A stretch of DNA of 64,000 nucleotides from Chitinophagales bacterium (GCA_040877935.1 JBBDNB010000043.1:26109-90108); one strand, 5' to 3'; positions 14,533-50,519 are shown, numbered from the stretch's first letter. Numbers and translations: made by a program. Notes: generated by a model from the sequence alone, not told the origin.

Positions 14533-14585
14533 ATCGTGAATTTATTAAAAATATATTAAAATGTCGAGTTTTTTGTTTGTAGTTC

Positions 14586-14760
14586 GGTACTACGAACAGT
14601 TGGGAAGTGAATTGGGATTTTGAAGAATAGTTCGTAGCAAGGGTGCTACGAACAGGATTTGATGAAGGTGCTACGAATCAGTTGCCAAAACATTAGTTCG
14701 TTGCGGGAATAGCTACACAGCTGTCAAATCAACCTATCCGTAGCGCCTCGCTACGGATTT
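14586..14760. repeat. REP-like hairpin cluster (right flank of RAYT gene)
   Basis: Copies of hairpin A (14631-14652) and hairpin B (14738-14756) plus CTACGAA half-sites at about 14591 and 14671. Order and orientation match the left cluster. Confidence 0.85.
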
Positions 14761-14773
14761 GCTTACTTGAATG

Positions 14774-18011: not shown

Positions 18012-18263
18012 TTATTCAGCTTCCGGTTTTTTTAACCTGGATTTAATGCTGTTGTATTCCTCCGCTTCTATGGCTACAAAGTGGGCGGGTTCCGCTTCTA
18101 TCAATTGTTCGATATACAGACGGTCGAAATAATTATTGGCATGAAAATCATTGGTTTCCCATTGATCACCGGGAAGGCTTTTCAATTCAGTAAATGAGTT
18201 TTCATCATTGATTTGAAAATAACTCTTTTCATTGCTGTATTTTCGGAAAAGTGGAAATTTCAT
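18012..18263 (-). CDS. hypothetical protein (83 aa)
   Basis: ORF convergent with gcdH. No recognisable motif. Confidence 0.4.
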   Translation of the reverse strand: MKFPLFRKYSNEKSYFQINDENSFTELKSLPGDQWETNDFHANNYFDRLYIEQLIEAEPAHFVAIEAEEYNSIKSRLKKPEAE

Positions 18264-18372
18264 TTCAGCGGATTTTCATTTTTTGCAAAGAAATAAAAAA
18301 TGTGGCTCTTTGGAGACCAATAGATAAAACCCAGATCGGTATATTTACATTTTGATTCAATAAAATCCAAGA

Positions 18373-19026
18373 ATGCTCGAAGCAAGGGATATCCATAAAA
18401 AATACGGGGAACTGGAAGTGCTGAAAGGTGTAAGCCTGAAAGTGGAAAAATCTGAAATTGTAAGTATAGTGGGAGCTTCGGGTGCCGGGAAAAGTACGCT
18501 TTTGCAAATCATCGGTACGCTGGACAAGCCCGACAGCGGCAGCATTAAAATTGACAATACAGCAATAGACAGCCTGAATGAAAAGCAATTGGCCAAATTC
18601 AGAAATGAGAAGATCGGTTTTGTTTTTCAGTTTCACCATTTGTTACCTGAATTCACTGCGCTGGAAAATATTCTGATTCCAGCTTATTTGGGCAAAGCAA
18701 ATATTTCCAATCCGGAAAAGCGCGCAAAGGAATTGCTGGATTTGCTGGGTTTAAAGAATCGAATGGAACACAAGCCCAATGCCCTGAGCGGGGGAGAGCA
18801 GCAAAGAGTAGCTGTTGCCCGCGCATTGATGAACAAGCCTGCACTCGTGTTGGCTGATGAACCTTCAGGCAATCTGGATTCCAATAATTCAAAGGAACTG
18901 CACGAATTGTTTTTCCGCCTGAGAGATGAATTGGAGCAGACATTTATATTGGTCACCCACAATAAAGACCTGGCAAATATGGCCGACCGCAAACTGGAAA
19001 TGCAGGATGGGTTGATTCTAAGCTAG
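18373..19026 (+). CDS. lolD: lipoprotein-releasing/MacB-type ABC transporter ATP-binding protein
   Basis: Walker A GASGAGKST, signature LSGGEQQRVAVARA, Walker B LVLADEPSGNLD. The 217-aa size is LolD-like. Confidence 0.8.
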   Translation: MLEARDIHKKYGELEVLKGVSLKVEKSEIVSIVGASGAGKSTLLQIIGTLDKPDSGSIKIDNTAIDSLNEKQLAKFRNEKIGFVFQFHHLLPEFTALENILIPAYLGKANISNPEKRAKELLDLLGLKNRMEHKPNALSGGEQQRVAVARALMNKPALVLADEPSGNLDSNNSKELHELFFRLRDELEQTFILVTHNKDLANMADRKLEMQDGLILS

Positions 19027-20021: not shown

Positions 20022-21113
20022 TTATTCGGCAGACCAGCTTACTAAAATATTTCGATCACCTACGTAGGGGAGTCTTCCGTGGCTGGTACTGTAATTGTCA
20101 ATAGCCACTACATCGCCTTTTTTCCATGGGAAAACGCTCATGTTTTTCCAAATAAGGTCTTCTACATGTTCCACATAAGCTCTTGGAATTTCAGAGCCAT
20201 CTTTAAAGGTACAATGCATGGCTTGATCCATCGGACTGCTGAATTTTTCTTTAAAGAATGTCATTATGGAAATGAAATTGTTGTAGAAAAAGGAGCGCAA
20301 ATTACCCTGCAATTTGTGGATCTTTTTGTATTCTATAGCCGCAGCAGAACGATGAAAAACCTGCAAATGATTGAACCAAACTTTTTCGCCAGTCACCGGG
20401 TGTGTAATACAAGCTTCTTGGTCATTGATTAGCCGTAGCTTATCATTGTCTTTCCAAACTACCTCCAAACCATTTTCTTTTGATTTTTCCTCAGCAACAT
20501 TTTTGTCATCTGTTAAAAACATTTCATCCCAACGCTTGAGCTTCCACAAATCAAATTTGCTTTTGCTGTTGGGGCCATTATAATTTCTAATATTTTTAAT
20601 ACCCCGGGTTTCAAATTCCTGCCTGATTTCGGGATCCATTTGTTCATATACTTTTCTGAAATTAACAATAGGTGTTTCTCCACCCAGTTCCGGTTGTGTT
20701 TCGCAAAAGAAAAAGAGTTTGCGGGGCGGGTTGGGTAAAAAACTCATTTCGCAGTGCTGCATGATAGGGTAATGAGAGGGGAGCTCACTTGCAGAAAAGA
20801 CATATTTTGTAACACTGTTGCGCGGTGAAGTTCCCAAATAATTGTTTTTTAAATCCGGGTCAATTTTTATTGCTACATCTTCAAAATCCTGGGCAGTGTT
20901 GATGTCAAATCCTCTAAAGAGAATTGCACCATCCTTATAAATTTGTTTGTCGATAAATTCTTTGTTTTGATCTATCCATTCGATAAGTGCAGCTTTACTT
21001 TTATCCTCCTTTGCTTCAGCAACGAGCGGTAAACTTATTTCCTCATCAAAATACCTGAAATTCAATTTGTCTTTTTCTTTCAATGTGTTGGTTTCCATTT
21101 TTCCTTGAATCAT
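20022..21113 (-). CDS. TauD/TfdA-family Fe(II)/2-oxoglutarate dioxygenase
   Basis: 363 aa with an H-x-E metal motif (MQHCEMSF), a distal HGR (STSHGRLPY) and a clavaminate-synthase-like layout. Confidence 0.6.
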   Translation of the reverse strand: MIQGKMETNTLKEKDKLNFRYFDEEISLPLVAEAKEDKSKAALIEWIDQNKEFIDKQIYKDGAILFRGFDINTAQDFEDVAIKIDPDLKNNYLGTSPRNSVTKYVFSASELPSHYPIMQHCEMSFLPNPPRKLFFFCETQPELGGETPIVNFRKVYEQMDPEIRQEFETRGIKNIRNYNGPNSKSKFDLWKLKRWDEMFLTDDKNVAEEKSKENGLEVVWKDNDKLRLINDQEACITHPVTGEKVWFNHLQVFHRSAAAIEYKKIHKLQGNLRSFFYNNFISIMTFFKEKFSSPMDQAMHCTFKDGSEIPRAYVEHVEDLIWKNMSVFPWKKGDVVAIDNYSTSHGRLPYVGDRNILVSWSAE

Positions 21114-21213
21114 TTAATTCTAAAGTAAAGAAAATAAAAAGAAAATAGAAATTTTAAAATGTGGTAAAACTTGTTTCTCTGTGGATTGATAAAAGATTGG
21201 CTAAATTTACTTT

Positions 21214-24200
21214 ATGTCATTGAATTTCAGATACAGCCTATGTTTTATTTTGCTGTTTTCATATAGTATCACTTTTTCGTTTTCATCCGAAAACAATTTT
21301 TCTAAACGAAGTTTTTTATTTGAAATACTCGATCCTAAAGCCAGCGGAATAGAACACGAGTTTGGCAAGCTATCACATGCCGGGATTGAAGGTGGGGGAG
21401 TGGCTGTGGGCGATTTGAATGGCAATGGCTTCTATGATATTTTCCTTGTTGGGGATTCATTGCACGGACTTTATGAAAACAAGGGCGGTTTAAAGTTTGA
21501 ACAGCGTTTTGGTCAAAGTGGTATCCCTTCAGTTAGAGGTGCTACTTCCGTTTTGATTTATGACATTAACAAGGATGGAAAACCTGACATTATTTTGGGC
21601 AGGCGTTCAGTGTCCAACAATCCGCTTCATCAAATGAAAACTAATACTTCCAATTTGGAAGAAACTGAAAGCAAGCTACTTGTTTATCTCAATTTAGGAG
21701 ATTTTAAGTTCTGTACCGATCCTGATTTTCATATATCTATGGACAGGCCGGTAAGTGGAATGACACTTGCAGATTTTGATAAAAATGGACTCATGGATAT
21801 AGCTGTGTCCACATGGGATGTAGATTTTTCAGAGATCAACAGTGCATTATTGAGTGTGGAAGAATTGAGTATGAAGAATGAAAGTCCTGTAAAACTTTTT
21901 ATGCAGCGTGAAAAAGGAGTGTTTGAGGAGCGTGGTTTGGAAATGGGTTTAAATGACGGAAGTGCAGTGAAGACTTCTTTTTCTCTCACCGCTACTGATT
22001 TGGATAATGATGGCTGGCCGGACCTTATTGTCAGCAATGATTTTGATATACCTGACATGATTTATATTAATAATGATGGAAAAAGTTTTAAAAAGAGCGA
22101 TATACAGGAAACAATGAGTTTTTTTTCAATGGGGATGGATGCGGCTGATATTTCTAATAATGGTTTTGTAGATTTTATGATATCGGATATGCGCCCACTG
22201 AATTATTACCGCCAAAAAACAGTGAAATACGAAAAGCTCTTTAACTGGGATAATATGCTAACTCATAGTGATATTGCAAGGCAAGAAGTTAGAAATACAT
22301 TATTTCTTAACCACGGGGAATTGCAATTTTCTGAAATAGCACAAATGATTAATGCTGACGCTACAGACTGGAGCTGGTCGGTACTTCTTGCAGATTTTGA
22401 CAACAATTCAAATAAAGATATTTTTATTTCAAATGGCTATTTCCACCAGGATTTTTTCAAACACGATACACCGCTTTTTTTCGATTCTGTTCGTCAGACT
22501 TTGCCGGCAATATCCGATAAAGATTTTCTCATCAAGCTTCAAAAAAGAGATACTCTCACAGCTCCTGTTTTTAAGAATTTCTTTTTTTCCAATACAGGAG
22601 CACTTTCTTTTAAAAACAGGAGTGATACCTGGCAGCCTTCAAAAGCTCTAAACACTCGTGGTGCTGCTTATGCCGACCTTGACAATGACGGTGACCTTGA
22701 CTTAATTCTCAATAATGCCAAATCACCTGCTCTGATTCTTAAAAACACAAGTGATGAACTAACAGGGAATAATTTTTTGAGAGTAAAATTAACAGACTCA
22801 GAACGCAGGCCTTTGTTGCACAGTAGAGTTCATATTTATTACTATGCTGAAAAGGGAATTGAAATGCAAATGCAGGAATTGCAGCCATGTCGGGGTTTTT
22901 ATTCCGCTTCAGAGGATGTATTGCATTTTGGGCTGGGCACACAAAAAATTATCGATTCTGTGATTGTTAGCTGGCCAAATGGCAAGCAAAGCATTGTGAA
23001 AAATATTGCTGCCAATCAATTGCTCGAAATTGAATATACTGATCCTCAACTTAGAAATTCACCTAAAAAGGAATTGACCAAAAAAGCTTTTGAAGCAGTG
23101 GAAATCAAAGGCTTGAAATATTTGCATAAAGAAAATAATTTCAATGATTTGGCAGAAAACCCATTAATGCCGCAAATGTATTCTCGCGAAGGGCCATGTA
23201 TAGCTATTGGCGATTTGAATGGCAATGGATTTGATGATGTAGTAATTGGTGGTGCGGCACAGGCGACTACAATCTTTTATCAGAACAGTCCGGAAGTTTT
23301 TGAGAGCGATACTTTAGCTGGTTTGGAAAATGAAGCATGGCAGGAAGATGCCGCAATTTTGATTTTTGATTACAACAGTGATGGACTTAATGATCTGCTG
23401 ATTGCTTCCGGTGGAAATGAAAAAGCAGAAGGTGATTCATTCTACAGGCACAGGATATACAGAAACCTTGGCAATGGTAACTTTAAGCAGGAGAATATTT
23501 TACCGGATATTCGCAGCAGTGCTTCTGTTGCGAAGCTAAATTATATAGCTTCTGATTCAACAAAGCCATTGATATTTATAGGCGGAAAAATTAAACCTAA
23601 AAATTATCCCCTTCCACCGGAATCTTATTTGCTGGCATATGAAAATGGGCGTTTTGTGGATGTGACTGATCAATTGGCCCCCGGGCTTAAAAATGCAGGT
23701 ATGATTAGTGATGCCATTTGGTCAGATTTTGATGGGGACGGCAATGTTGATTTGATTGTAGTTGGAGAATACATGTCCCCGAAATTTTTCAAAAATAAAT
23801 CGGGATTTTTTAAAGATGTCAGCCCAAAAGTTTTACCGGGGGACAGTTTAAATGGTTTTTGGAATTGTATTGTATCCGGTGATTTCAATAAGAATGGTTC
23901 AACTGATTACGTGATTGGCAATTTGGGTTTAAATACCAGGTATAAAGCCAGTGCTGATTTTCCACTGGAAATTTTTGCTGCTGATTTTGATGAAAATGCT
24001 TATAGGGATATAATTACTGCCTATTATGAGGATGGAAGACTTTATCCTGTAAAACAATTGAATACTTTTAAAGACAGGATTGCAGGGTTTTCAAAAAAAT
24101 ATTACAAACATGCAGATTTTGCTTCAGCAGATATGGAAGAGATTTTCGGAAAAGAGCCATTAGATAAGGCTTTGCATTTGAAAGTGCATACAACAGCTTC

Positions 24201-24570
24201 TGTATATCTTGAAAATAAGGGAAAGGGAACGTTTAAAATTCATCAATTACCAATAGCAGCACAGGTAGCCCCTGTAAAAGCAATGCAAGTATTGGATTAT
24301 AATAAGGACAGTAATCCTGATATTTTACTGGCGGGGAATTTTTTTCATACAGAAACCGAAAGGGGCAGCTATACAGCCCAAAAGGGACTTCTATTAGAAG
24401 GTGACGGAAATGGTGGGTTCACTGCTTTACAAGCTCCTGAGTCTGGATTTTATGCCAATGGCGATTGCCGTTTTATAGAAATATTGAATAAGCAGAACAA
24501 GCCACTGATACTTTTGGGCAGAAATGATGCTGCTCTTAAAATTTTCAGATGGGTAAACTCTGCAAACTAA
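21214..24570 (+). CDS. FG-GAP/VCBS repeat protein with ASPIC/UnbV domain (CRTAC1-like)
   Basis: Repeated GDLNGNGFxD, DLDNDGWPDLIV, DLDNDGDLDLIL and DFDGDGNVDLIV motifs, plus a central LRVKL...RVHIYYYAEKGIEMQMQELQPCRGFYSASEDVLHFGLG (ASPIC/UnbV). Confidence 0.8.
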   Translation: MSLNFRYSLCFILLFSYSITFSFSSENNFSKRSFLFEILDPKASGIEHEFGKLSHAGIEGGGVAVGDLNGNGFYDIFLVGDSLHGLYENKGGLKFEQRFGQSGIPSVRGATSVLIYDINKDGKPDIILGRRSVSNNPLHQMKTNTSNLEETESKLLVYLNLGDFKFCTDPDFHISMDRPVSGMTLADFDKNGLMDIAVSTWDVDFSEINSALLSVEELSMKNESPVKLFMQREKGVFEERGLEMGLNDGSAVKTSFSLTATDLDNDGWPDLIVSNDFDIPDMIYINNDGKSFKKSDIQETMSFFSMGMDAADISNNGFVDFMISDMRPLNYYRQKTVKYEKLFNWDNMLTHSDIARQEVRNTLFLNHGELQFSEIAQMINADATDWSWSVLLADFDNNSNKDIFISNGYFHQDFFKHDTPLFFDSVRQTLPAISDKDFLIKLQKRDTLTAPVFKNFFFSNTGALSFKNRSDTWQPSKALNTRGAAYADLDNDGDLDLILNNAKSPALILKNTSDELTGNNFLRVKLTDSERRPLLHSRVHIYYYAEKGIEMQMQELQPCRGFYSASEDVLHFGLGTQKIIDSVIVSWPNGKQSIVKNIAANQLLEIEYTDPQLRNSPKKELTKKAFEAVEIKGLKYLHKENNFNDLAENPLMPQMYSREGPCIAIGDLNGNGFDDVVIGGAAQATTIFYQNSPEVFESDTLAGLENEAWQEDAAILIFDYNSDGLNDLLIASGGNEKAEGDSFYRHRIYRNLGNGNFKQENILPDIRSSASVAKLNYIASDSTKPLIFIGGKIKPKNYPLPPESYLLAYENGRFVDVTDQLAPGLKNAGMISDAIWSDFDGDGNVDLIVVGEYMSPKFFKNKSGFFKDVSPKVLPGDSLNGFWNCIVSGDFNKNGSTDYVIGNLGLNTRYKASADFPLEIFAADFDENAYRDIITAYYEDGRLYPVKQLNTFKDRIAGFSKKYYKHADFASADMEEIFGKEPLDKALHLKVHTTASVYLENKGKGTFKIHQLPIAAQVAPVKAMQVLDYNKDSNPDILLAGNFFHTETERGSYTAQKGLLLEGDGNGGFTALQAPESGFYANGDCRFIEILNKQNKPLILLGRNDAALKIFRWVNSAN

Positions 24571-24813
24571 TTGACAAGTATAAGCACCAGCTTAGTGTAG
24601 CATTTTAGTGCATTAAATATCTTACACGATTGATTTTTTTTGCGGAATCTCTGTAGTCAATTGTGTATAAACCTATTTGCAATCAAACTCTTTTACGCAA
24701 AATGTTTATTTCTTCGAAAAACCGGTGGATATCTATATATTTTATGTGAATAAACAGGGATTTTTAGTGTATTGACTAGTGGGAATATTGTGTATTAATT
24801 TTTATCAAAAAGA

Positions 24814-24844
24814 TTTGTACATCTGGATTTTACATCTACTTTTG
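24814..24844 (+). promoter_or_regulatory. Bacteroidota sigma-A-type promoter (-33 TTTG / -7 TAnnTTTG)
   Basis: TTTG at 24814-24817 and TACTTTTG at 24837-24844, 19 nt apart. This matches the Bacteroides consensus spacing. Confidence 0.55.
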
Positions 24845-24849
24845 ATACT

Positions 24850-25198
24850 ATCGAATGAGAGATAAAGGGTAGAGGCGAAAGCCGAAAGCTTTGATCTTCA
24901 TCTGAGAAAAGGAAAGCTAAAGGATTGATTCTTTCTTCGGAAAGAAAAGATTGAAAAAGCGTAAGCTTCAGAAGGCTGAATTTTCTCGCTCCTGCGAAAG
25001 CTTGGAGTTACTGAATGAAACGGTGCAAGCCGGGGATTTCGATAGATGAGTTTTAAAGTTTTCCCGAAAAAACCTGTAGCATTTATGTTGCAGGAATATG
25101 GGAATCCGTAATAACTGTAATTCGACAATGATTCGCACTACGGTGCCGGATTGTTGAAGGCGGGATTTCAAAGCAATTTGAGTCCCGCCTTTTGTTTT
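24850..25198 (+). ncRNA. unclassified structured RNA candidate (about 350 nt, promoter to intrinsic terminator)
   Basis: It has no credible ORF. There are many tetraloop hairpins on the + strand: GGC-GAAA-GCC (24874-24883), a 7-bp stem with a UUCG loop (24929-24946), GC-GAAA-GC inside GCTCC/GGAGT (24988-25008) and GCAC-UACG-GUGC (25135-25146). An 8-bp helix at 25073-25094 contains G-U pairs. It ends in a strong terminator. Confidence 0.5.
25159..25198 (+). terminator. rho-independent terminator
   Basis: GGCGGGA...TCCCGCC stem (25159-25189) with an inner CAAA/TTTG extension, followed by TTTTGTTTTT. Confidence 0.8.
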
Positions 25199-25337
25199 TA
25201 TACCCTCCTGTTAGTTGCTGCAAATGGTTAAGGAAAATACCAACAAACAATTTTTGACAATAAATGTTAATGCAAAATGTATTCAAGCTTGCTTAAGTGC
25301 AAGTTCCTTATCTTAATTATTTAAAACTTATGAGTTC

Positions 25338-27431
25338 ATGAAAAGCTCTGTTGTCAGTATTGTCTGTATATATCTTAGTATTGGGATTATCTCACCTTTC
25401 AATCTTTATGCACAGAGTTTTTCAATTGGACAAAGCAGCCAAAGCATTAGTGATCCACAACGATCAAGAAATATCGATACAGAAATTTTTTATCCTGCAA
25501 CACAGCCTGGTAGCAATACCCCGTTAGCCAATGGTAATTTTCCGCTTATTGTTTTTGGTCATGGATTTTCAATGAATTTTGGTGCTTATCAGAATTTTGT
25601 GGATGAATTTGTACCAAAAGGTTTTATCCTGGTTTTTCCTAAAACGGAAGTAGGCCCAATTCCTTTTCCCGATCATGCAGCTTTTGGACAGGATTTGAGT
25701 TTTTTGACTGATTATTTCCAGGCACAGTCTACCGACCCAAATGCCTTTTTCTATCAAAAGATAAATGGTAAAACTGCTGTAATGGGACATTCTATGGGTG
25801 GTGGTTGCAGTTTTCTTGCCGCAGAGCAAAACAGCAATATTAATGTGATGGCTACTTTTGCTGCTGCCGAAACCAATGTTTCTGCAATTGCTGCTGCCCA
25901 GAACGTAAATATTCCCGCTTTGGTTTTTGCAGGTTCGGAGGACAATGTAGCACCACCTTTGGGCAATCAAATTGATATGTACAACAACCTGGCAAGCGAT
26001 TGTAAATACCTGATAACTTTAGATGGGGGCAGCCACTGTGGATTTGCCAATTCGAATGCCGCTTGTGATTTTGGTGAAACAAGTGTTTGTCTTTTTTGCA
26101 GTTTTATAAGTCGTGCAGAACAGCATTTACGCACTTTTTCGGTCTTGGGGCCTTGGCTGGATTTTCATTTAAAAACGGAGTGCAATAAATGGACGGATTT
26201 TGAACTTTCACTTCAGAACACTACCGGACTAGTGGTTCAGACAAACTGTACTTATGCATTGCCGGAAGCAAATTTTCAGGCACAAGGTGACAGTACATTT
26301 TGTTTAGGAGATTCGATTGTGCTCAATACTACTTCAACGCTTAAAAAAAAATGGTCAACGAATGATACTTCATTCAGCATCAAAACAAAAAACAGCGGCC
26401 AATATTATTTAATTGTAGAAGATCAATACGCCTGCAAAGATACCAGTAGAACTATTTCTGTTACTGTAAACCATCCGGCTGATATTGTTTTCAATTACCC
26501 GGATACTGTCTTTTGCGGAATAGATAGTATAGAATTGCAATTACTGGGAAATTACAATACCGTATCCTGGTCAGGACTTGGAGTAAATAGACTTTGGGTG
26601 AGCGAATCTGGGATATACACAGTAGAAATAACTGACAGCAACAATTGTGTAAACAAGGATTCAATTGATATAATTCTAAGTAAAGCCGATACAAATTTTT
26701 TACCGCAGTTAAGTGCCAAGCCATCAAATTTCACCTGCCCTGAAGAAAGCATTATTCTTTCTATGAGCGATACATTAGATGGGTCAGTTTTTTGGAGCAA
26801 TGGCTCAAATCAACAGGACATTAGCACTGATTCAGCAGGGATTTTCTTTGTGCAGCGGACAGATAGTTTTGGTTGCGTATATTATTCTGATAGTATTGAA
26901 GTTGGTTTCTATGATTTGCCCAATCCGCTAATAGACACTATAGCTGATTCAGTTTTTTTGGTAAATCCGGCCAATTACGGCAATATCAACTGGTATTATA
27001 ATGACAGCATTCAACTGAATCAATTTCAAAATGAGACGGCAATATTGCCCGACACAAGTGGCCTATATCAGGCTGAAGTAATTGACAGTAACGGCTGCAC
27101 TGCTTTTTCATTAGCGGTATATTTTAAATACAGTGCAACTGCTGATAGTTTAGGTGATACCACAAATGTAAGGGTGGAGGAATTAGATGAGTTTTCAATA
27201 AGGAGCAAAATTAAAATCCATCCTAACCCAGTTCAAGATCTGCTTTATATTGATGTTAAACTGGCGTATGATTTTCGCCTGGTGGATATAAGCGGACGGG
27301 TTTACAAGCAAGGGGAGCTGAAAGCCATGTCCAATATTATTGATTTACAGGAATTGCCTCAAGGGATTTATTTCCTTCAGCTTTTGTCTGATAAAAAAAT
27401 GCAAAGTTTCAAGATGCTGAAAATTTTATAG
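25338..27431 (+). CDS. secreted alpha/beta hydrolase (cutinase/dienelactone-hydrolase/PETase-like esterase) with Ig-like repeats and T9SS type A C-terminal domain
   Basis: Signal peptide. Catalytic Ser in VMGHSMGGG, Asp in FAGSEDNVAP, His in LDGGSHCGFANSN (compare PETase/cutinase GWSMGGG...D...GGSHSCANSG). Repeats of the GxYxVxVxDxNxC type. C-terminal KIHPNPVQDLLYIDV...GIYFLQL...KMLKIL. Confidence 0.75.
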   Translation: MKSSVVSIVCIYLSIGIISPFNLYAQSFSIGQSSQSISDPQRSRNIDTEIFYPATQPGSNTPLANGNFPLIVFGHGFSMNFGAYQNFVDEFVPKGFILVFPKTEVGPIPFPDHAAFGQDLSFLTDYFQAQSTDPNAFFYQKINGKTAVMGHSMGGGCSFLAAEQNSNINVMATFAAAETNVSAIAAAQNVNIPALVFAGSEDNVAPPLGNQIDMYNNLASDCKYLITLDGGSHCGFANSNAACDFGETSVCLFCSFISRAEQHLRTFSVLGPWLDFHLKTECNKWTDFELSLQNTTGLVVQTNCTYALPEANFQAQGDSTFCLGDSIVLNTTSTLKKKWSTNDTSFSIKTKNSGQYYLIVEDQYACKDTSRTISVTVNHPADIVFNYPDTVFCGIDSIELQLLGNYNTVSWSGLGVNRLWVSESGIYTVEITDSNNCVNKDSIDIILSKADTNFLPQLSAKPSNFTCPEESIILSMSDTLDGSVFWSNGSNQQDISTDSAGIFFVQRTDSFGCVYYSDSIEVGFYDLPNPLIDTIADSVFLVNPANYGNINWYYNDSIQLNQFQNETAILPDTSGLYQAEVIDSNGCTAFSLAVYFKYSATADSLGDTTNVRVEELDEFSIRSKIKIHPNPVQDLLYIDVKLAYDFRLVDISGRVYKQGELKAMSNIIDLQELPQGIYFLQLLSDKKMQSFKMLKIL

Positions 27432-31093: not shown

Positions 31094-31203
31094 GGTCGCG
31101 TAGCTCAGTCCAGACGAAGCAAAGCTTGTCTGGATGCAGACATTCAGAGAATCGTCTGCATTGGATATCGCAATTTTTGATTACCGCAGGTTTTTAATCC
31201 TGC
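31094..31203 (+). pseudogene. degenerate tRNA-Arg-like copy A interrupted by two hairpins
   Basis: GGTCGCGTAGCTCAGT equals tRNA nt 1-16. Next come hairpins CCAGAC...GTCTGG (31110-31133) and ATGCAGAC...GTCTGCAT (31134-31161), then TGGATA (rest of the D-loop), then the T-arm-like GCAGG-TTTTTAAT-CCTGC (31186-31203). There is no 3' acceptor strand. Confidence 0.7.
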
Positions 31204-31214
31204 TTTGAAATATT

Positions 31215-31277
31215 GGTCGCGTAGCTCAGTTGGATACCCGCCCGTACCGAAAAGGCACGTTCGGGCGGGGAGCATCT
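31215..31277 (+). pseudogene. tRNA-Arg 5' fragment B (nt 1-30) with a 33-nt GC-rich palindrome in the D-loop
   Basis: GGTCGCGTAGCTCAGTTGGATA, then the insert at 31237-31269 (CCCGCCCGTACCGAAAAGGCACGTTCGGGCGGG), then GAGCATCT. Identity to the real gene ends in the anticodon stem. Confidence 0.85.
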
Positions 31278-31315
31278 TAAAGCATTACATTGACTATTTT
31301 AATTTTTGAAAACAT

Positions 31316-31389
31316 GGTCGCGTAGCTCAGTTGGATAGAGCATCTGCCTTCTAAGCAGACGGTCACAGGTTCGAATCCTGTCGCGATCA
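31316..31389 (+). tRNA. tRNA-Arg (anticodon TCT)
   Basis: Hand-folded cloverleaf: acceptor GGTCGCG/CGCGATC, D-arm GCTC-AGTTGGATA-GAGC, anticodon arm TCTGC-CTTCTAA-GCAGA, variable loop CGGTC, T-arm ACAGG-TTCGAAT-CCTGT, discriminator A. 74 nt, no encoded CCA. Confidence 0.95.
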
Positions 31390-31393
31390 CGAA

Positions 31394-31425
31394 AAGGCTT
31401 CACAAGTGTGGAGCCTTTTTTATTT
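31394..31425 (+). terminator. rho-independent terminator after tRNA-Arg
   Basis: AAGGCTTCAC/GTGGAGCCTT stem followed by a T-run. Confidence 0.7.
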
Positions 31426-31457
31426 TATAATTTGAGTGAATTTATTTCTTGAAAACC

Positions 31458-31520
31458 GCAGACGGTCACAGGTTCCCCGCCCGAACGCATTCAGGCGGGC
31501 GGGGAATCCTGTCGCGATCA
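31458..31520 (+). pseudogene. tRNA-Arg 3' fragment C (nt 39-74) with a 28-nt GC-rich palindrome in the T-loop
   Basis: GCAGACGGTCACAGGTTC, then the insert at 31476-31503 (CCCGCCCGAACGCATTCAGGCGGGCGGG), then GAATCCTGTCGCGATCA. A second terminator-like hairpin follows (31523-31557). Confidence 0.85.
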
Positions 31521-40820: not shown

Positions 40821-42203
40821 ATGAATCAGGTAAATAACAATATTGTGTTTTTTCAAAAATTACTCTTGTATGCTCTTTTCCTTGTATTTGCACTGGATGC
40901 AAAGGCGCAGTGTGATGTTGATTTTGATTATGTCATTATAGGTGACAGTGTACATTTTGAAAACCTTTCGAGCAATATCGGCCCCAATGACAGCTTTGAA
41001 TGGGATTTAGACGATGGAACGCTGCTGTCAGTTATAGACAGTCTTACATACAGCTATGCTACAGAAGGCATTTATAATGTATGCCTTACCCGCACCAATT
41101 TACTGGCAATTCCACCTTGTGTGGAAACAGTATGTAAAGATGTGGTTTTTTGTATCGATTGCGTGTGGCCGGGGGATGCCAACAGCGATTTTATTGCCGA
41201 CAATAAAGATGTGCTTTATATCGGTCTGGCTTACGGATTTTCAGGGCCTGCGCGTACAATTGATACAGCTACCAACTGGGCGCCAAAAATAAGTTCTACT
41301 TTATGGCTAGATATTAATTCCGATCCCCTGGATTTTACAACGGGAGTCAATTACAAACATGCAGATTGTGATGGCGATGGTATTGTTAATGAAGCTGACC
41401 TTCGTCCTTTGGACAGAAACTACAACCAAACCCACAACAAGTCAAGACCACCGGCCTGCACAAATATCAATGATGTGCCCCTGTATTTTGAGATTTTATA
41501 CGACAGTATTGAAGTAGGAACTGCAGTTGAGATTGCAATCCGCCTTGGCACTAATAATATTACAGCAAATGAAGCCTATGGTATTGCTTATACTTTGCAT
41601 TACGACAGACATTTGGTTGATTCCAGTAGTGTGGAAATAGATTATGATGATACGGGCTTTAAGAAAAATCCGAATGATACCATTATTCACCTCAATAAAT
41701 ATTTTGATCAGCAGGCTGAAATTGAAACGGCAGTAAGCCGTACCAATCAAGAAGGAAAAACCCTGAGCGGACAAGCAATTGGGCACGTATTTTTTGTAAT
41801 GGAAGACAATTTGGTTCAGAAAAACAGTACGATTTCCGAATACCTGCACCTTTCCTTTTCTGATGTATATTTAATTGACAGTGCTGAAAATCAAATTCCG
41901 GTTTGTGCTTTTAGCGATTCCGTTTTGGTATATCAAAAAGTCGCGGGAACAGGAGCGCATATTAATTCAAACGACTGGAAAATATACCCCAATCCTGCAA
42001 ATGATGTCCTTAATATTGAAGTTGAAGAAGATGAAATTTCATCATTGAATGTATTCAATTTATCCGGTCAAAATGTATTGACTGTTCCTCAACTCAATTC
42101 CGGCAAAACCAGGCTTTCGCTTGAGTCACTCCCCAATGGACTCTATTTTATAGAAATCAGGGTCGGAGATACTTATGGGTTTAAGAAATTTATTAAACAG
42201 TAA
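40821..42203 (+). CDS. T9SS type A C-terminal domain surface protein with PKD-like and dockerin/cohesin-like modules
   Basis: The ATG at 40821 gives a signal peptide (track ORF starts at TTG 40770). It has a PKD-like DFDYVIIGDSVHFENLS...YNVCLT, Ca-binding dockerin-like DANSDFIADNKDV and DCDGDGIVNEADL, and a C-terminal WKIYPNPANDVLNIEV...LPNGLYFIEIRV...KFIKQ. Confidence 0.8.
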   Translation: MNQVNNNIVFFQKLLLYALFLVFALDAKAQCDVDFDYVIIGDSVHFENLSSNIGPNDSFEWDLDDGTLLSVIDSLTYSYATEGIYNVCLTRTNLLAIPPCVETVCKDVVFCIDCVWPGDANSDFIADNKDVLYIGLAYGFSGPARTIDTATNWAPKISSTLWLDINSDPLDFTTGVNYKHADCDGDGIVNEADLRPLDRNYNQTHNKSRPPACTNINDVPLYFEILYDSIEVGTAVEIAIRLGTNNITANEAYGIAYTLHYDRHLVDSSSVEIDYDDTGFKKNPNDTIIHLNKYFDQQAEIETAVSRTNQEGKTLSGQAIGHVFFVMEDNLVQKNSTISEYLHLSFSDVYLIDSAENQIPVCAFSDSVLVYQKVAGTGAHINSNDWKIYPNPANDVLNIEVEEDEISSLNVFNLSGQNVLTVPQLNSGKTRLSLESLPNGLYFIEIRVGDTYGFKKFIKQ

Positions 42204-42229
42204 AGCGATTTTTGTTTGATTTTCTAAAT

Positions 42230-42457
42230 AGGGCTTCCTCAAAAAGTCCCAGATACATCAGATACAAACGGGCAAAGTGAAGATGTATAGGAATACTTCG
42301 AGCTGAAGCCCGTGAAGTAGATGGTGTGTCTGGGGCTTAGCTGAGATAAAACACAGGGAAAAATAGCAGATGTTCTAAAAAAATTTGCATTTCAAAGAAG
42401 GGTTAAGGCGTATAAGAAATAGATAATGAATACTTTATAGCGTTTTGAGGAAGCCCT
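42230..42457. repeat. 228-bp element bounded by 15-16-bp perfect inverted repeats (MITE-like, or a long-range RNA helix)
   Basis: (T)AGGGCTTCCTCAAAA at 42229-42244 is the reverse complement of TTTTGAGGAAGCCCT(A) at 42443-42458. AAAT flanks both ends (42226-42229 and 42458-42461). Nested internal helices occur at 42246-42260/42322-42336 and 42268-42273/42308-42313. Confidence 0.6.
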
Positions 42458-42463
42458 AAATAA

Positions 42464-42496
42464 GGGATGTACATCTGTGCATCCCTTTTGTTTTTT
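42464..42496 (+). terminator. rho-independent terminator
   Basis: GGGATGTAC-ATCT-GTGCATCCC stem-loop followed by TTTTGTTTTTT. Confidence 0.85.
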
Positions 42497-42858
42497 ATTG
42501 AAAAATGCAAATGAGTTATTCCGGCTAAATCACAGTTTAGGTAGTCGTGCTTCAGTATTCACAGCGATTTTAGCTGCTTTTTCCAGTGTTAAAAAACTTA
42601 AATTTTTCGGAAGGGCTCAAAATGTGTCGGTGCACTAAGGCTCACTTTGCTTGAAAAATCAAGCTTCATATTGATATACTTGTGTTTTTGTGGTGAAAAT
42701 TTCTCGGAAAACCACAAAATGTGTTCGGTAATTTCTTCTTTTATTCTTTTATAATCACCTAATAATTAGTGTAATTCACTTGTGTAAAAAATAGATAAAA
42801 ATATTTTTTGCGATGATTAATGTTTAAAATTCATTTTTTAATAAAAAAAGGAGAAATT

Positions 42859-46863: not shown

Positions 46864-46892
46864 GTATGGATTAGTGTAGGTTTTCAGTTGTG

Positions 46893-46932
46893 CGGGCCCT
46901 CTGTCAGTTTGATAGAGGGCTCGTTTTATTTT
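46893..46932 (+). terminator. rho-independent terminator after paralog 1
   Basis: CGGGCCCTCT...AGAGGGCTCG stem followed by TTTTATTTT. It is duplicated after paralog 2. Confidence 0.8.
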
Positions 46933-47040
46933 GTGAGACTTGTTTCTAAAATTGCGCAGTATTTGAAATTTAATTGCCGAAAGAATAGAGCAAAGTAATT
47001 TCATAAACAACGGGAGTGATCCTGACACGTTTTGGGGTAA

Positions 47041-47175
47041 ACGAGTAGAAAACAATCCACTTCGGGTAGTTCTTACACAGGCGGGCTTTCAATCGATTCC
47101 CTTCCCAGCGGCTCGTATTTCATTGAAATTGAAAGCAAGTCCGGTATAGGATTTAGGAAATTCGTGAAGGAATAA
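47041..47175 (+). pseudogene. remnant of a T9SS type A C-terminal sorting domain
   Basis: Hand translation gives ...GGLSIDSLPSGSYFIEIESKSGIGFRKFVKE then a stop, with an in-frame TAA directly upstream at 47038. Only the last beta-strands of a CTD survive. Confidence 0.55.
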
Positions 47176-47573
47176 TTTTTATTGCTGGTTTAAGTCAACT
47201 ATCAAACAAAGGTCTTACCAAAATTAAATAGCTGCAAAATGTAGCCTGATCGTTTGATTCACCGTTAGAAAGTCAGCATTAAGCAGTAGCAAATTTGATC
47301 AATCTTATTTAAAGGGCAATGAAAAATCAATCTCAAGCCAAGGGCAACGCTAGTTAATCAGGTTCTGATTCAAAGTATCAGGGAAAAAATCTGCTAATAA
47401 AATTTAATAGTTAATCTGTTTTATTTAATAATCTCCGCCATTGCGGGTAGGGCATCCTATTCTGTCAAATGTGTGAATGATGTAAGTCTTAGCTTAAATT
47501 GTGTAACGGTTAAGCTCTATGAATGGCTCATATTTGTTGCAAGAAAATTCTTTCACAGCTAAATCAATATAGT

Positions 47574-47753
47574 ATGAACACTACCGAGTTAAAAGGCAAT
47601 TGGAATGAGCAGAAAGCAAAACTCAAAAAGAAATTTGCAATGCTTACCGATGACGACCTAATGTTTGCTGAAGGAAAAAGAGATGAAATGTTCTTAAAAC
47701 TTCAAAAAAAATTAGGCAAGACTAAAGAGGAATTGCGCAAAATTATCTCCTAA
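47574..47753 (+). CDS. CsbD-family general stress protein
   Basis: MNTTELKGNWNEQKAKLKKKFAMLTDDDLMFAEGKRDEMFLKLQKKLGKTKEELRKII matches the CsbD pattern (GxWxxxKGKxKxxxGxLTDDDL). The start is the internal ATG at 47574. Confidence 0.75.
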   Translation: MNTTELKGNWNEQKAKLKKKFAMLTDDDLMFAEGKRDEMFLKLQKKLGKTKEELRKIIS

Positions 47754-47984
47754 AACTTTCAGGATCAATTATAATTTTGATTTTTTTAATCAAATTATTT
47801 TTGAAAAAATCTCGGAAAACCATGTTTTTTGTTCAGTAAATATTCCATTTTAAGTTTGATAAACAATTAATAATGAACTTATTTTGGTTCTGATAAAAAC
47901 AGATAAACTATTTATTCTTCTGAAATTTAGAAGAAAAATAGTTTAATTTTTAAAATCATTTTTTAAACCAAAAAACTAACAAAT

Positions 47985-50519
47985 ATGAAAACGCTCAAAA
48001 TTTATTTAGGAAAAATCCCAATGCTTTTTGCTGCAATATTATTTGCAAGCACAAGCGCAATGGGGGCATCATTTACAGCCGTAAGTTCAGGCAGCTTTAG
48101 TAATTCAGCAACTTGGGGCGGATCTGCACCCCCCTCCACTATTACTGCCGATCAGGTTACTATCCCATCGGGAATCACGGTTGATCTAGACAATGACTTA
48201 ATGTTGAATGCGGCCATTGCCTCATTGGATGTAAATGGTACATTGAATACATCAACAAGTGCAGCGCTTACGATCAATTCCGGATCACTTTCTGGTACTG
48301 GAGATATCGTTTTGGATTCAGTCTCTACCGGATTAAGTGCGGTATTGCTTTTCACAGGTTCTATTACTACCAATGCCATGACAAATGCTTCGGCTAGTTT
48401 GCAAGTGGCTTCAGAACTGGATGTGGAAGAAACGCTTACCTTGATGGCAGGTAGTGCCATTAGCTTGAATTCAGGTGGAGATCTGATGATTGGCAATAAT
48501 GCTACTGTTATTATTGATTCTGGTGGTGGACTTTCCGTATCGGGAGGAGCACTTGGCTTTTCTGGAAACTACAATGTAGTGTATTCTGGAGGCTCAGCCA
48601 ATGCTGGACTGGAATTGAGCGGTGCTGGATTAACGGATATCGGCATTGATGTTGGTTCTGGAAACAGTGTTAGCTTAAGCTCAGATTTAATGGTAGATGG
48701 CGAATTGATGTTGGCCAGCGGTACACTTGATATTGGCAACAACACACTTACCTTTAACTCAAGCGGTGATTTATCTGCAAGTGGTTCAGGATCGATTTCC
48801 TCGGCTGGTGCTGCAAATATTGTAGTCAACTCCAATGCTGGTTTGTCTGGTTCTTTGAGCTTTGATGCTTCTGGAAATACTGTGAATAATTTTACGGTAA
48901 GTATAGGAAGCGGAAGCAGTGTGCAGGTTGACAGCGATTTAAATGTAAATGGAACGCTGCAATTGGATGGCGGAACTACATTTGATTTTAGCGGAGCTGC
49001 ACTGACCATCAATGGCGATTTGAGTGGCTCGGGCATGTTGAGTGCCAATGCCAGTTCAGATTTGACAATTAATGTTACTGGTGGAATTTCTGATTCTCTG
49101 TCATTTTCCAGCAATGGACAAGTAGTGAATAATTTGACCATCAATGTGGGTTCAGGCAACAGTGTTGACTTGGCTGCTGCAACTGATCTTTCCGTAGAAG
49201 GAACTTTGGATTTATCAGGAGGAAGCAGTTTGAATATTGCTGGTTCTGATTTGAATCTAAACGGTGACTTAAACGGCTCTGGTAGTATTTCAGCAAATGC
49301 TAGCAGTGCTATCAATATCAATGCCACTGGAGGACTTTCTTCCGACTTGTCATTTAGTGGAGGAAGTGCTACAGTAGGAGGTTTTAGTGTAAATGTAGGA
49401 TCTGGCAATAATGTAACAATTGACGGAAACCTAAATGTAACAAGCACACTGAGTATCCTAAGTGGTAATCTTGATTTGAACAGCAATGATTTGAGCGTTT
49501 CTGGCGCAATAAATGTAAATGCAGACGGTGCCATTCATTCCAATGCAGATTCTGATATCAGCATAGATTTGGCTACAGCTTCTGGTGCTTCTATCGGCTT
49601 TACTGCCAATGGCAATACTGTTGGGAATTTTGATTTAAATATCGACTCCGGTGACGCCATTGCGCTTGGTTCTGATTTGAACATTGATGGTGAATTGTCT
49701 TTTTCAGGAATGGGAAGCATTGATATTCAGAACAATAACCTTCAATTTGGAGCAAGTGGCTCAATCAGTGGTGCCGGAAGTAGCTCATATGTTATCACTT
49801 CCGGTTCAGGGCAAGTGGCTATGGATTTAAGTGCTGGCAGTGGAGCTTCAGTAGAATTTCCGGTAGGTACTTCAGTTAATTTTGCGCCTGCAAATATTGA
49901 GCTAAACAGCGGTTCTCAAAGTGGTACTGTAATGGTGAATGTTGATGCCGGAGTTTTGGCCAATGGAAGCAGCGGTGCAAATATGTCAGGCTTTCAAAGT
50001 GTAGTTGATGCTACATGGAATGTTGAATCCAACATCAATGCCAATATTGATATGAATATGGAAGTGCTCTGGTCAACTGATATGGAAGTGAATGGTTTTA
50101 ATAATGGAGAAGCCTATATTTCACATTATATCAATGGCGAATGGGATGCTACAGCAAGTGCATCTGCTACTGCTGAAGGAAGTGGAATGTTCAGTCTTCA
50201 GAGAGAAGGCATTACTTCATTGAGTCCTTTTGCAGTATTTGATGAAAACACAGCAGTAGGGATTCCTGAAAATGATGCAGCTGTTGAGATCAATATATTC
50301 CCAAATCCAACTTCGGATATAGTTGTGATAGAAAATAAGCAGATGCTTGATCAAAGGTTAAATGCTCAAATTATTAGTGTTACTGGTCAGGTGATAGATA
50401 ACTATGAGATCAATGGGCAACAGCAAACTATTTCGCTGGAGCACCTTTCAAGCGGAAGCTATTTTATTCGCATCTACAATGATGATATGAATTATGTAGA
50501 GCAAATCCAGAAACTGTAA
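47985..50519 (+). CDS. repeat (beta-helix-like) surface protein with T9SS type A C-terminal domain (paralog 2)
   Basis: The N-terminal ~130 aa and C-terminal ~300 aa are collinear with paralog 1 (FTAVSSGSFSNSATWGGSAPP...; ...NAQIISVTGQVIDNYEING...YFIRIYND..NYVEQIQKL). It lacks the near-identical 738-bp array. Confidence 0.85.
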   Translation: MKTLKIYLGKIPMLFAAILFASTSAMGASFTAVSSGSFSNSATWGGSAPPSTITADQVTIPSGITVDLDNDLMLNAAIASLDVNGTLNTSTSAALTINSGSLSGTGDIVLDSVSTGLSAVLLFTGSITTNAMTNASASLQVASELDVEETLTLMAGSAISLNSGGDLMIGNNATVIIDSGGGLSVSGGALGFSGNYNVVYSGGSANAGLELSGAGLTDIGIDVGSGNSVSLSSDLMVDGELMLASGTLDIGNNTLTFNSSGDLSASGSGSISSAGAANIVVNSNAGLSGSLSFDASGNTVNNFTVSIGSGSSVQVDSDLNVNGTLQLDGGTTFDFSGAALTINGDLSGSGMLSANASSDLTINVTGGISDSLSFSSNGQVVNNLTINVGSGNSVDLAAATDLSVEGTLDLSGGSSLNIAGSDLNLNGDLNGSGSISANASSAININATGGLSSDLSFSGGSATVGGFSVNVGSGNNVTIDGNLNVTSTLSILSGNLDLNSNDLSVSGAINVNADGAIHSNADSDISIDLATASGASIGFTANGNTVGNFDLNIDSGDAIALGSDLNIDGELSFSGMGSIDIQNNNLQFGASGSISGAGSSSYVITSGSGQVAMDLSAGSGASVEFPVGTSVNFAPANIELNSGSQSGTVMVNVDAGVLANGSSGANMSGFQSVVDATWNVESNINANIDMNMEVLWSTDMEVNGFNNGEAYISHYINGEWDATASASATAEGSGMFSLQREGITSLSPFAVFDENTAVGIPENDAAVEINIFPNPTSDIVVIENKQMLDQRLNAQIISVTGQVIDNYEINGQQQTISLEHLSSGSYFIRIYNDDMNYVEQIQKL

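Follow-up and report, generated by a model that had tools for sequence, protein, structure and literature searches.

Introduction

Bacterial RNAs of more than about 300 nucleotides (nt) with complex folds are rare, and most of the examples understood so far are ribozymes, cores of ribonucleoproteins or machines that are unusual in other ways. A number of orphan large structured non-coding RNAs (ncRNAs) have been described in GC-enriched intergenic regions of bacteria, among them raiA, IMES-1, HEARO and the group of ROOL, GOLLD and OLE (PMC2864571, PMC5737381, PMC12286853). Here we report on a 64,000-nt stretch of DNA from an uncultured Chitinophagales bacterium (GCA_040877935.1 JBBDNB010000043.1:26109-90108; called the window below, with positions counted from its first letter), in which a first-pass annotation had pointed to a structured RNA candidate in the 767-nt gap (24571-25337) between two plus-strand genes, an FG-GAP/ASPIC gene and a gene for a PETase-like esterase. 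We propose that positions 24849-25201 of the plus strand are a stand-alone gene for a highly structured ncRNA of about 353 nt, independently transcribed, restricted to one lineage and belonging to a new family. We put the probability of this reading at roughly 55%. The assignment is provisional and was reached by exclusion.

According to this proposal, transcription would start near 24849-24851 from the RNA's own Bacteroidota-type promoter (-33 TTTG, -7 TACTTTTG) and would stop at a strong intrinsic terminator at 25157-25199. The transcript is predicted to fold into a compact core that is closed by a helix between its 5' and 3' parts, with a three-way junction and about 14 helices, and to carry two further hairpins on the 3' side of this core; seven helices would be capped by GNRA or UNCG tetraloops. 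Such an RNA would act in trans in its folded form, by binding protein or serving as a scaffold, or else through a tertiary structure of its own, and would not work as a linear base-pairing small RNA (sRNA). Its distribution would be restricted to a poorly sampled Chitinophagales lineage.

The unit has much in common with the orphan large ncRNAs. It lies in a long intergenic region, its GC content (0.39-0.42) is above that of its flanks (0.29-0.31), it is rich in helices with GNRA or UNCG caps and has multi-way junctions, and it comes with an apparent promoter and terminator of its own and without an obvious link to the neighbouring genes. It does not match any of these families in sequence or structure at E<=10, however, it is smaller than ROOL, GOLLD and OLE, and it is known from one genus-level lineage only. 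Moreover, the orphan classes are defined by covariation, whereas the unit is known from a single sequence and 30 nt of a second one.

A second resemblance is to type A RNase P RNA (RF00010), which is of similar size (about 350-400 nt) and also contains several stable tetraloop-capped hairpins. The segment GGAAAGCU (24911-24918) forms a short pairing with GGCU (24974-24977), which comes after CAGAA; this arrangement, GGAAAGCU...CAGAAGGCU, recalls loosely, over 8 nt, the P4 strands of RNase P (GAGGAAAGUCC and ACAGAA..GGCUUA). The resemblance is no more than a lead and finds no support in the covariance models. Unlike RNase P RNA, the unit does not match the covariance model, the other conserved regions and the motifs of the specificity domain were not seen in it, and it ends in an intrinsic terminator and not in a P1 helix that involves the 5' end.

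Fold and architecture of the predicted RNA

The plus strand of 24845-25198 has a minimum free energy (MFE) of -118.3 kcal/mol, compared with -88.5 +/- 4.8 kcal/mol in dinucleotide shuffles (z -6.17), and none of the 100 shuffles folded as well. In the same test the reverse complement of the unit reached a z of -2.74 only. The predicted ensemble is well defined, with 113 base pairs, 16 of which (14%) are G-U pairs, and with pairing probabilities above 0.85 in most helices (RNAfold). When the whole window was tiled, with a control that is noisy at 10 shuffles per tile, the tile of the unit ranked third of 360 by MFE and seventh by z, counted from the lowest value.

The unit is also set apart by its tetraloops. 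Hairpins of at least 3 base pairs (bp) with GNRA or UNCG loops number six in the unit, compared with a mean of 0.48 per 353-nt tile, and one on its minus strand; a count of six was reached at one other location of the window only, which is mostly coding. A second tetraloop-rich tile, at about 18150-18750, was dropped as a candidate, being mostly inside the coding sequence of an ABC-ATPase. The heptamer GAAAGCT occurs 11 times in 128 kb (both strands), three of these in a 113-nt stretch of the unit. The first-pass annotation had counted four copies of (G/T)AAAGCT; there are three, the supposed fourth being the variant GUAAGCU at 24961.

All parts of the fold described here are on the plus strand. 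The core domain (24851-25125) is predicted to be closed by a helix P1 between UCGAAU (24851-24856) and AUUCGA (25120-25125), which has a mean pairing probability of 0.79 in RNAfold and was also found as inverted repeat I6. Within the core, a GGC-GAAA-GCC tetraloop hairpin (24874-24883; pairing probability 0.97) is followed by a central multi-branched domain (24884-25063; 0.74-0.98; inverted repeat I1), which was the basis of our covariance model R1. In this domain the helix 24904-24910/24981-24987, the hairpin 24988-25008 and the helix 25012-25015/25038-25041 would meet in a three-way junction, and two long-range helices (24884-24894/25053-25063 and 24897-24903/25044-25050) would enclose it. 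Four hairpins fall within the domain in the predicted fold: a 7-bp hairpin with a UUCG cap (24929-24946; 0.98), the GNRA hairpin AAGC-GUAA-GCUU (aagcGUAAgcuu, 24957-24968; 0.82), the GNRA hairpin GCUCC / GC-GAAA-GC / GGAGU (24988-25008; 0.97-0.98) and the GNRA hairpin CGGU-GCAA-GCCG (cggtGCAAgccg, 25021-25032; 0.98). On their 3' side are a 9-bp hairpin with two G-U pairs, CCUGUAGCA-UUUA-UGUUGCAGG (25073-25094; 0.96), and, outside the core, a 13-bp hairpin with three G-U pairs and a UACG cap (gcacUACGgtgc at 25135-25146), which spans 25126-25156 (0.90-1.00).

The four tetraloop hairpins on which the first-pass annotation had built its case (24874, 24929-24946, 24988-25008 and 25135-25146) are all present where it placed them. 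Likewise, the helices for which it had claimed G-U pairs do pair in this way (CGGGGA/UUCCCG, and CCUGUAGC/GUUGCAGG with two G-U pairs). The hairpins at 24957-24968 and 25021-25032 were absent from its list. The predicted combination of a closing 5'/3' helix, long-range helices, a three-way junction, seven stable tetraloops and A-rich joining strands would be typical of RNAs that form a tertiary structure or bind protein, and not of linear antisense RNAs.

Boundaries of the predicted transcript

Directly upstream of the unit we found a perfect match to the Bacteroidota housekeeping promoter (-33 TTTG and -7 TAnnTTTG, about 19 nt apart) at 24814-24844. It consists of the putative -33 element TTTG (24814-24817) and the -7 element TACTTTTG (24837-24844), both seen on reading the sequence and both part of the pattern TTTG-N19-TAnnTTTG. 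The -7 box ends 5 nt before the unit, and the start predicted from it coincides with the left edge of a shared block, deduced from the end of an assembly contig that is described below. Both boxes are covered by an imperfect inverted repeat, TATCAAAAAGATTTGTA / TACATCTACTTTTGATA (24803-24847; 17-nt arms, 76% complementary in the repeat search), which may be an operator for a regulator.

On the other side, the hairpin proper of the terminator (25157-25191) has a 15-bp stem with one bulged C and a GCAA loop, and the U-tract UUUUGUUUUU follows directly, which is the form of a Rho-independent terminator, a GC-rich hairpin with a U-tract directly after it. RNAfold gives the terminator (25157-25199) -22.1 kcal/mol, and its pairing probability in the ensemble is 0.86-0.96. 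From its end to the ATG of the esterase gene at 25338 there are 140 nt. The strong intrinsic terminator that the first-pass annotation had placed about 140 nt before the next start codon is thus confirmed by both energy and distance. A simple terminator scan did not detect the hairpin 25157-25191, probably because of the bulged C.

Further evidence on the two ends comes from Logan assemblies. They are built as de Bruijn graphs with k=31; each 31-mer is unique within an accession, and k-mers seen once are discarded. In such a graph, a contig is expected to end 30 nt inside a block if this block is common to at least two paths with differing flanks. A same-strain contig (L001), which aligns with the window over 6665 nt and shows 0 mismatches, stops at 24878. 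A contig of a sister species (L002) starts at the equivalent of 25172; exactly its first 30 nt, up to the equivalent of 25201, match the window perfectly, and beyond them the similarity drops to that of ordinary intergenic DNA. The two contigs are independent, and each of them breaks 30 nt (k-1) inside an end of the unit. With k=31, the breaks at 24878 and 25172 therefore place the block that would be common to different genomic contexts at 24849-25201. The left edge of this block is 5 nt past the -7 box and its right edge 2 nt past the U-tract, and it agrees with the predicted transcript within about 3 nt at either end.

In the sister species, the DUF5686 neighbour protein is 77% identical to that of the window and the esterase 65%, and the perfect identity of the last 30 nt of the RNA therefore stands out. 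Moreover, breaks at both edges suggest at least two contexts per metagenome. We regard these findings as good circumstantial evidence that a transcript-sized unit is conserved between co-occurring relatives, or is repeated, while its flanks are not.

A block of the form AAACAATTTTT(G/T)A....AATGTTAA (25247-25272, equivalent to positions 75-100 of L002), which lies between the terminator and the esterase start, is conserved amid otherwise diverged intergenic DNA. It may be a promoter or operator that belongs to the esterase gene itself.

Searches for known families and homologues

Using Rfam 15 (4227 covariance models) at gathering thresholds, we found a single match in the whole window, the tRNA-Arg at 31316. 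When the gap and the unit were scanned alone at E<=10, the best match was HrrF with 21.6 bits, compared with a threshold of 77; the RNase P models RF00010 and RF00011 gave zero matches on the gap or the unit at the same threshold, and HEARO and all other Rfam models were likewise unmatched by the unit. A transfer-messenger RNA (tmRNA) was found in the window neither by ARAGORN nor by Rfam. The first-pass annotation had seen no signature of RNase P, tmRNA, signal recognition particle RNA or riboswitches and had proposed an Rfam scan as a check; the empty scans agree with it, and no family turned up even at E<=10.

Searches for relatives of the unit gave similar results. A blastn search against phage and plasmid collections yielded zero matches, as did three patterns against viral contigs and the 3' 20-mer against the JGI metagenomes. 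A three-block pattern of GNRA hairpins, ill-suited to this purpose, returned 85 loci from the JGI metagenomes, all of them unrelated tandem repeats. GTDB was scanned twice, both times with protein queries and with no RNA-derived pattern: the esterase found no relative, and the DUF5686 alignment found a best relative of 30% identity only. The lineage is therefore apparently absent from the species representatives. Within our own collection, nhmmer over all 106 fetched loci and covariance model R1 (the 180-nt core) over the window and 13 related loci returned the self-match only, and the unit is single-copy within the 64-kb window by both blastn and the covariance model of the core. The second species contributes 30 nt only, all of them identical.

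The gap itself does not appear to encode a protein. Its longest open reading frames (ORFs) would give 76, 67 and 67 amino acids, and all three are on the minus strand and start with TTG. A concatenated six-frame translation of the gap, intended to catch also spurious ORF calls on homologous RNAs, had zero matches at E<=1 among 5.8 billion protein sequences. A small protein gene was thus dropped as a candidate, the ORFs being short, mostly TTG-started and without homologues, in line with the earlier statement that the gap holds no credible ORF. Overall, the coordinates and features listed in the first-pass annotation agree with the sequence, apart from small corrections.

Flanking genes and synteny

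The upstream neighbour of the gap is the FG-GAP/ASPIC gene (21214-24570, plus strand), and the downstream neighbour is the gene for the PETase-like esterase, which carries a type IX secretion signal (T9SS) and occupies 25338-27431 on the same strand. The products of both genes have counterparts of 100% identity among NCBI proteins from a metagenome-assembled genome. In esterase orthologues that are 57%, 45% and 43% identical, the gaps upstream measure 95 nt (L003), 79 nt (L018/L019) and 9 nt (L021), and the element is absent; it was found at none of the esterase loci L003, L004 and L018-L021. The FG-GAP orthologues (62%, 60%, 51% and 49% identical) are directly followed by a convergent gene, which starts 5-17 nt past the stop codon in one pair of orthologues and has a 4-nt overlap with it in the remaining pair, and the FG-GAP loci L005-L007, L107 and L108 lack the element as well. 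Since distant orthologues of both flanking genes are without it, the element is not a conserved leader of the esterase.

The distant esterase orthologues keep an older gene order, TamB-TsaD-(T9SS genes)-esterase. Compared with L003, L005, L007, L018, L021, L107 and L108, the gene order of the window at 20022-27431 is rearranged. In all relatives a PAP2/vanadium-haloperoxidase-like gene overlaps the start of the FG-GAP gene; the window lacks it, as it lacks the convergent gene after FG-GAP (SprB-like in L005 and L007), and its esterase gene lies away from the TamB-TsaD neighbourhood. With the neighbours rearranged in this way, the unit sits exactly at a synteny breakpoint. To judge from these loci, its association with the two flanking gene families does not extend past the window and L002. 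The synteny data argue against a conserved leader or 3' untranslated region (UTR), while a young, lineage-specific cis role would have room.

Weighing the readings

The first-pass annotation had left two readings side by side, a stand-alone ncRNA of unknown class and an unusually long cis-regulatory leader of the esterase gene. Of these the first is now the best supported, by the strand-specific fold, the signals that bracket it, the lack of an Rfam match and the shared block, with transcription and conservation of the RNA body as its predicted parts.

Several observations weigh against it. Other tiles of the window also fold at low z, and thermodynamics alone is not decisive. The pattern TTTG-N17-21-TAnnTTTG occurs four times in the window, with 4.03 occurrences expected, and therefore carries little weight on its own; it is permissive and not probative. 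The -33/-7 pair with its 19-nt spacing is thus present as first described, but not significant as a pattern. The contig breaks could stem from a polymorphism at 24879 or 25171 or from a drop-out of coverage, although such causes would need to coincide at exactly these two positions, and the same breaks fit a multi-copy or mobile element equally well. In both genomes that carry it, those of the window and of L002, the element lies just upstream of the esterase. Finally, a full-length homologue was found by none of the synteny, metagenome, viral, phage and plasmid, protein and profile searches.

An unlikely alternative is a cis-regulatory leader that belongs to the T9SS esterase gene and is specific to the lineage; it would be transcribed from the same promoter, and 25157-25199 would act in it as a conditional terminator under the control of a ligand or protein that binds the structured domain upstream. 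The unit shares with riboswitch and attenuator leaders the order of a structured domain, a strong terminator and a gene on the same strand, and in the window and in L002 the esterase gene comes directly next. On reading the sequence we saw no perfect TAnnTTTG box between the terminator and the ATG, and the 5' arm of the terminator has two look-alikes, GAAGGCUGAAUUU at 24971 (repeat D8) and GGGGAUUUCGA at 25032, from which alternative pairings could follow. Unlike such leaders, the element is absent at the distant orthologous genes and matches no aptamer, riboswitch or leader family of Rfam 15, and its structured part of about 300 nt would, as an aptamer, exceed any known class in size. The terminator is very stable and strongly favoured in the ensemble, and no convincing antiterminator was found. 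Moreover, the identity with L002 stops at the U-tract, and the separate conserved block at 25247-25272 suggests that the esterase has a promoter of its own. The orthologues without the element, the strong terminator and the point at which identity ends thus disfavour the second of the two earlier readings. Complementarity between the RNA and the esterase 5' UTR (pairs I2, I7 and I15) lies in sequence that is not conserved in L002, and pairing with this target, in trans or in cis, was dropped for that reason.

It is also improbable that the unit is a multi-copy or mobile non-autonomous element, MITE- or PATE-like or an orphan scaffold of the guide-RNA type, whose near-identity would be due to recent spread and not to purifying selection, and whose promoter and terminator features would be partly incidental. 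Like non-autonomous elements of the IS200/IS605 type (PATEs, omega RNA/HEARO), the unit measures a few hundred nt and is strand-specific and rich in hairpins, with one of them near its 3' end; like them, it sits at a synteny breakpoint, and the assembly graphs of two metagenomes branch at both its edges. An imperfect direct repeat is found at the two edges, CTTTTGATAC (24839-24848) and GTTTTTATAC (25194-25203), but its copies coincide in part with the -7 box and the U-tract, and L002 does not keep the ATAC part. Unlike the IS200/IS605-type elements, the unit occurs once in 64 kb, its left and right hairpins are dissimilar, and no gene for TnpA, TnpB or IscB flanks it. The repeat search found no terminal inverted repeats that would join the ends of 24849-25201. 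The genes on both sides encode an FG-GAP/ASPIC protein and a T9SS esterase, and not a transposase, TnpB, IscB or a reverse transcriptase. HEARO, along with every other Rfam model, was unmatched, and the phage, plasmid and viral collections were empty.

We consider it very unlikely that the unit is a non-functional remnant of an intergenic rearrangement that folds well by chance. Such a remnant would be in keeping with the lack of retrieved homologues and with a promoter motif at chance frequency; some coding tiles, too, have a z below -5 (10 shuffles), and one coding region equals the unit in its tetraloop count. Against this, several independent signals coincide in one 353-nt block. These are a z of -6.2 with strand asymmetry, six to seven stable tetraloops, the clustering of GAAAGCU, a terminator of -22 kcal/mol, 30 nt of perfect identity with a species in which the adjoining intergenic sequence has diverged, and contig breaks at both predicted ends.

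Hardly credible, finally, is a structured and possibly processed 3' UTR of the FG-GAP/ASPIC gene with 25157-25199 as that gene's terminator: the gene is on the same strand and the scan detected no intrinsic terminator between its stop codon (24570) and 25157, but a 278-nt AT-rich spacer precedes the unit, the shared block begins at 24849 beside the promoter motif and not at the stop codon, the FG-GAP orthologues have their immediate convergent gene and no such tail, and a probable FG-GAP orthologue in the lineage of L002 (L005) is not adjacent to the esterase.

Other elements in the window

Apart from the stand-alone RNA proposed here, the window contains several unusual elements. At the tRNA-Arg(TCT) locus (31094-31520, plus strand), the 5' 16-mer of the tRNA, GGTCGCGTAGCTCAGT, is present in three exact copies (31094, 31215 and 31316) and its 3' 16-mer, AATCCTGTCGCGATCA, in two (31374 and 31505), and the only intact tRNA is that at 31316-31390. 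GC-rich hairpins at positions of the D-arm and T-loop interrupt the extra pieces; one example, CCCGCCCG...CGGGCGGG, is found near 31237-31268 and near 31476-31503. These pieces may represent tRNA pseudogenes that were disrupted, scars of integration or insertions of a hairpin element.

The gap 42204-42819 (616 nt), between two plus-strand genes, also folds strongly (z -5.3), and the tile 42191-42544 reached z -12.7 in the coarse scan. It contains a near-perfect long hairpin of about 230 nt (approximately 42229-42460), followed by the terminator-like GGGAUGUACAUCUGUGCAUCCC and a U-tract, and Rfam gave zero matches to it at E<=1. This gap may hold a further RNA that is not annotated, or a long inverted repeat. 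The intergenic region 14560-14770, which likewise gave no Rfam match at E<=1, contains repeated words of the GTAGC/GCTAC type, including TACTACGAACAG, GTGCTACGAACAGG, GGTGCTACGAATC and CCGTAGCGCCTCGCTACGG. The left end of contig L001 maps to about 14730, and both breaks of this contig thus fall in unusual intergenic elements.

An apparent gap of 1.1 kb at 46864-47984 holds a small unlisted ORF (47576-47752; about 59 amino acids, MNTTELKGNWNEQKAKLKKKF...), the product of which may be a stress protein of the CsbD family. One of the four perfect TTTG-N-TAnnTTTG promoter matches lies here as well, at 47828-47858, upstream of the gene at 47985, and tiles of this gap also fold at low z in the coarse tiling.

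Implications

A more far-reaching view, which we offer tentatively, is that the unit is the founding member of an undescribed class of mid-sized, ornate bacterial ncRNAs. Such a class would be near-invariant across an unsampled Chitinophagales genus, would serve as a ribonucleoprotein scaffold or as a catalytic or ligand-binding RNA and not as a base-pairing sRNA, and would perhaps be able to move or duplicate. Self-contained mobility or duplication would explain both the position of the unit at a synteny breakpoint and the branching of the assembly graphs at its edges.

If the unit were an ordinary lineage-specific sRNA or a leader, its importance would be modest. It would rise sharply with covariation in homologues or with an abundant discrete transcript. 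If the unit is indeed a stand-alone structured RNA of a new family, it adds a class to a short list and offers a tractable target for studies of structure and function, even if it is confined to a narrow lineage. It would also mean that under-sampled lineages of the Bacteroidota still hide structured RNAs that are invisible to family-based annotation.

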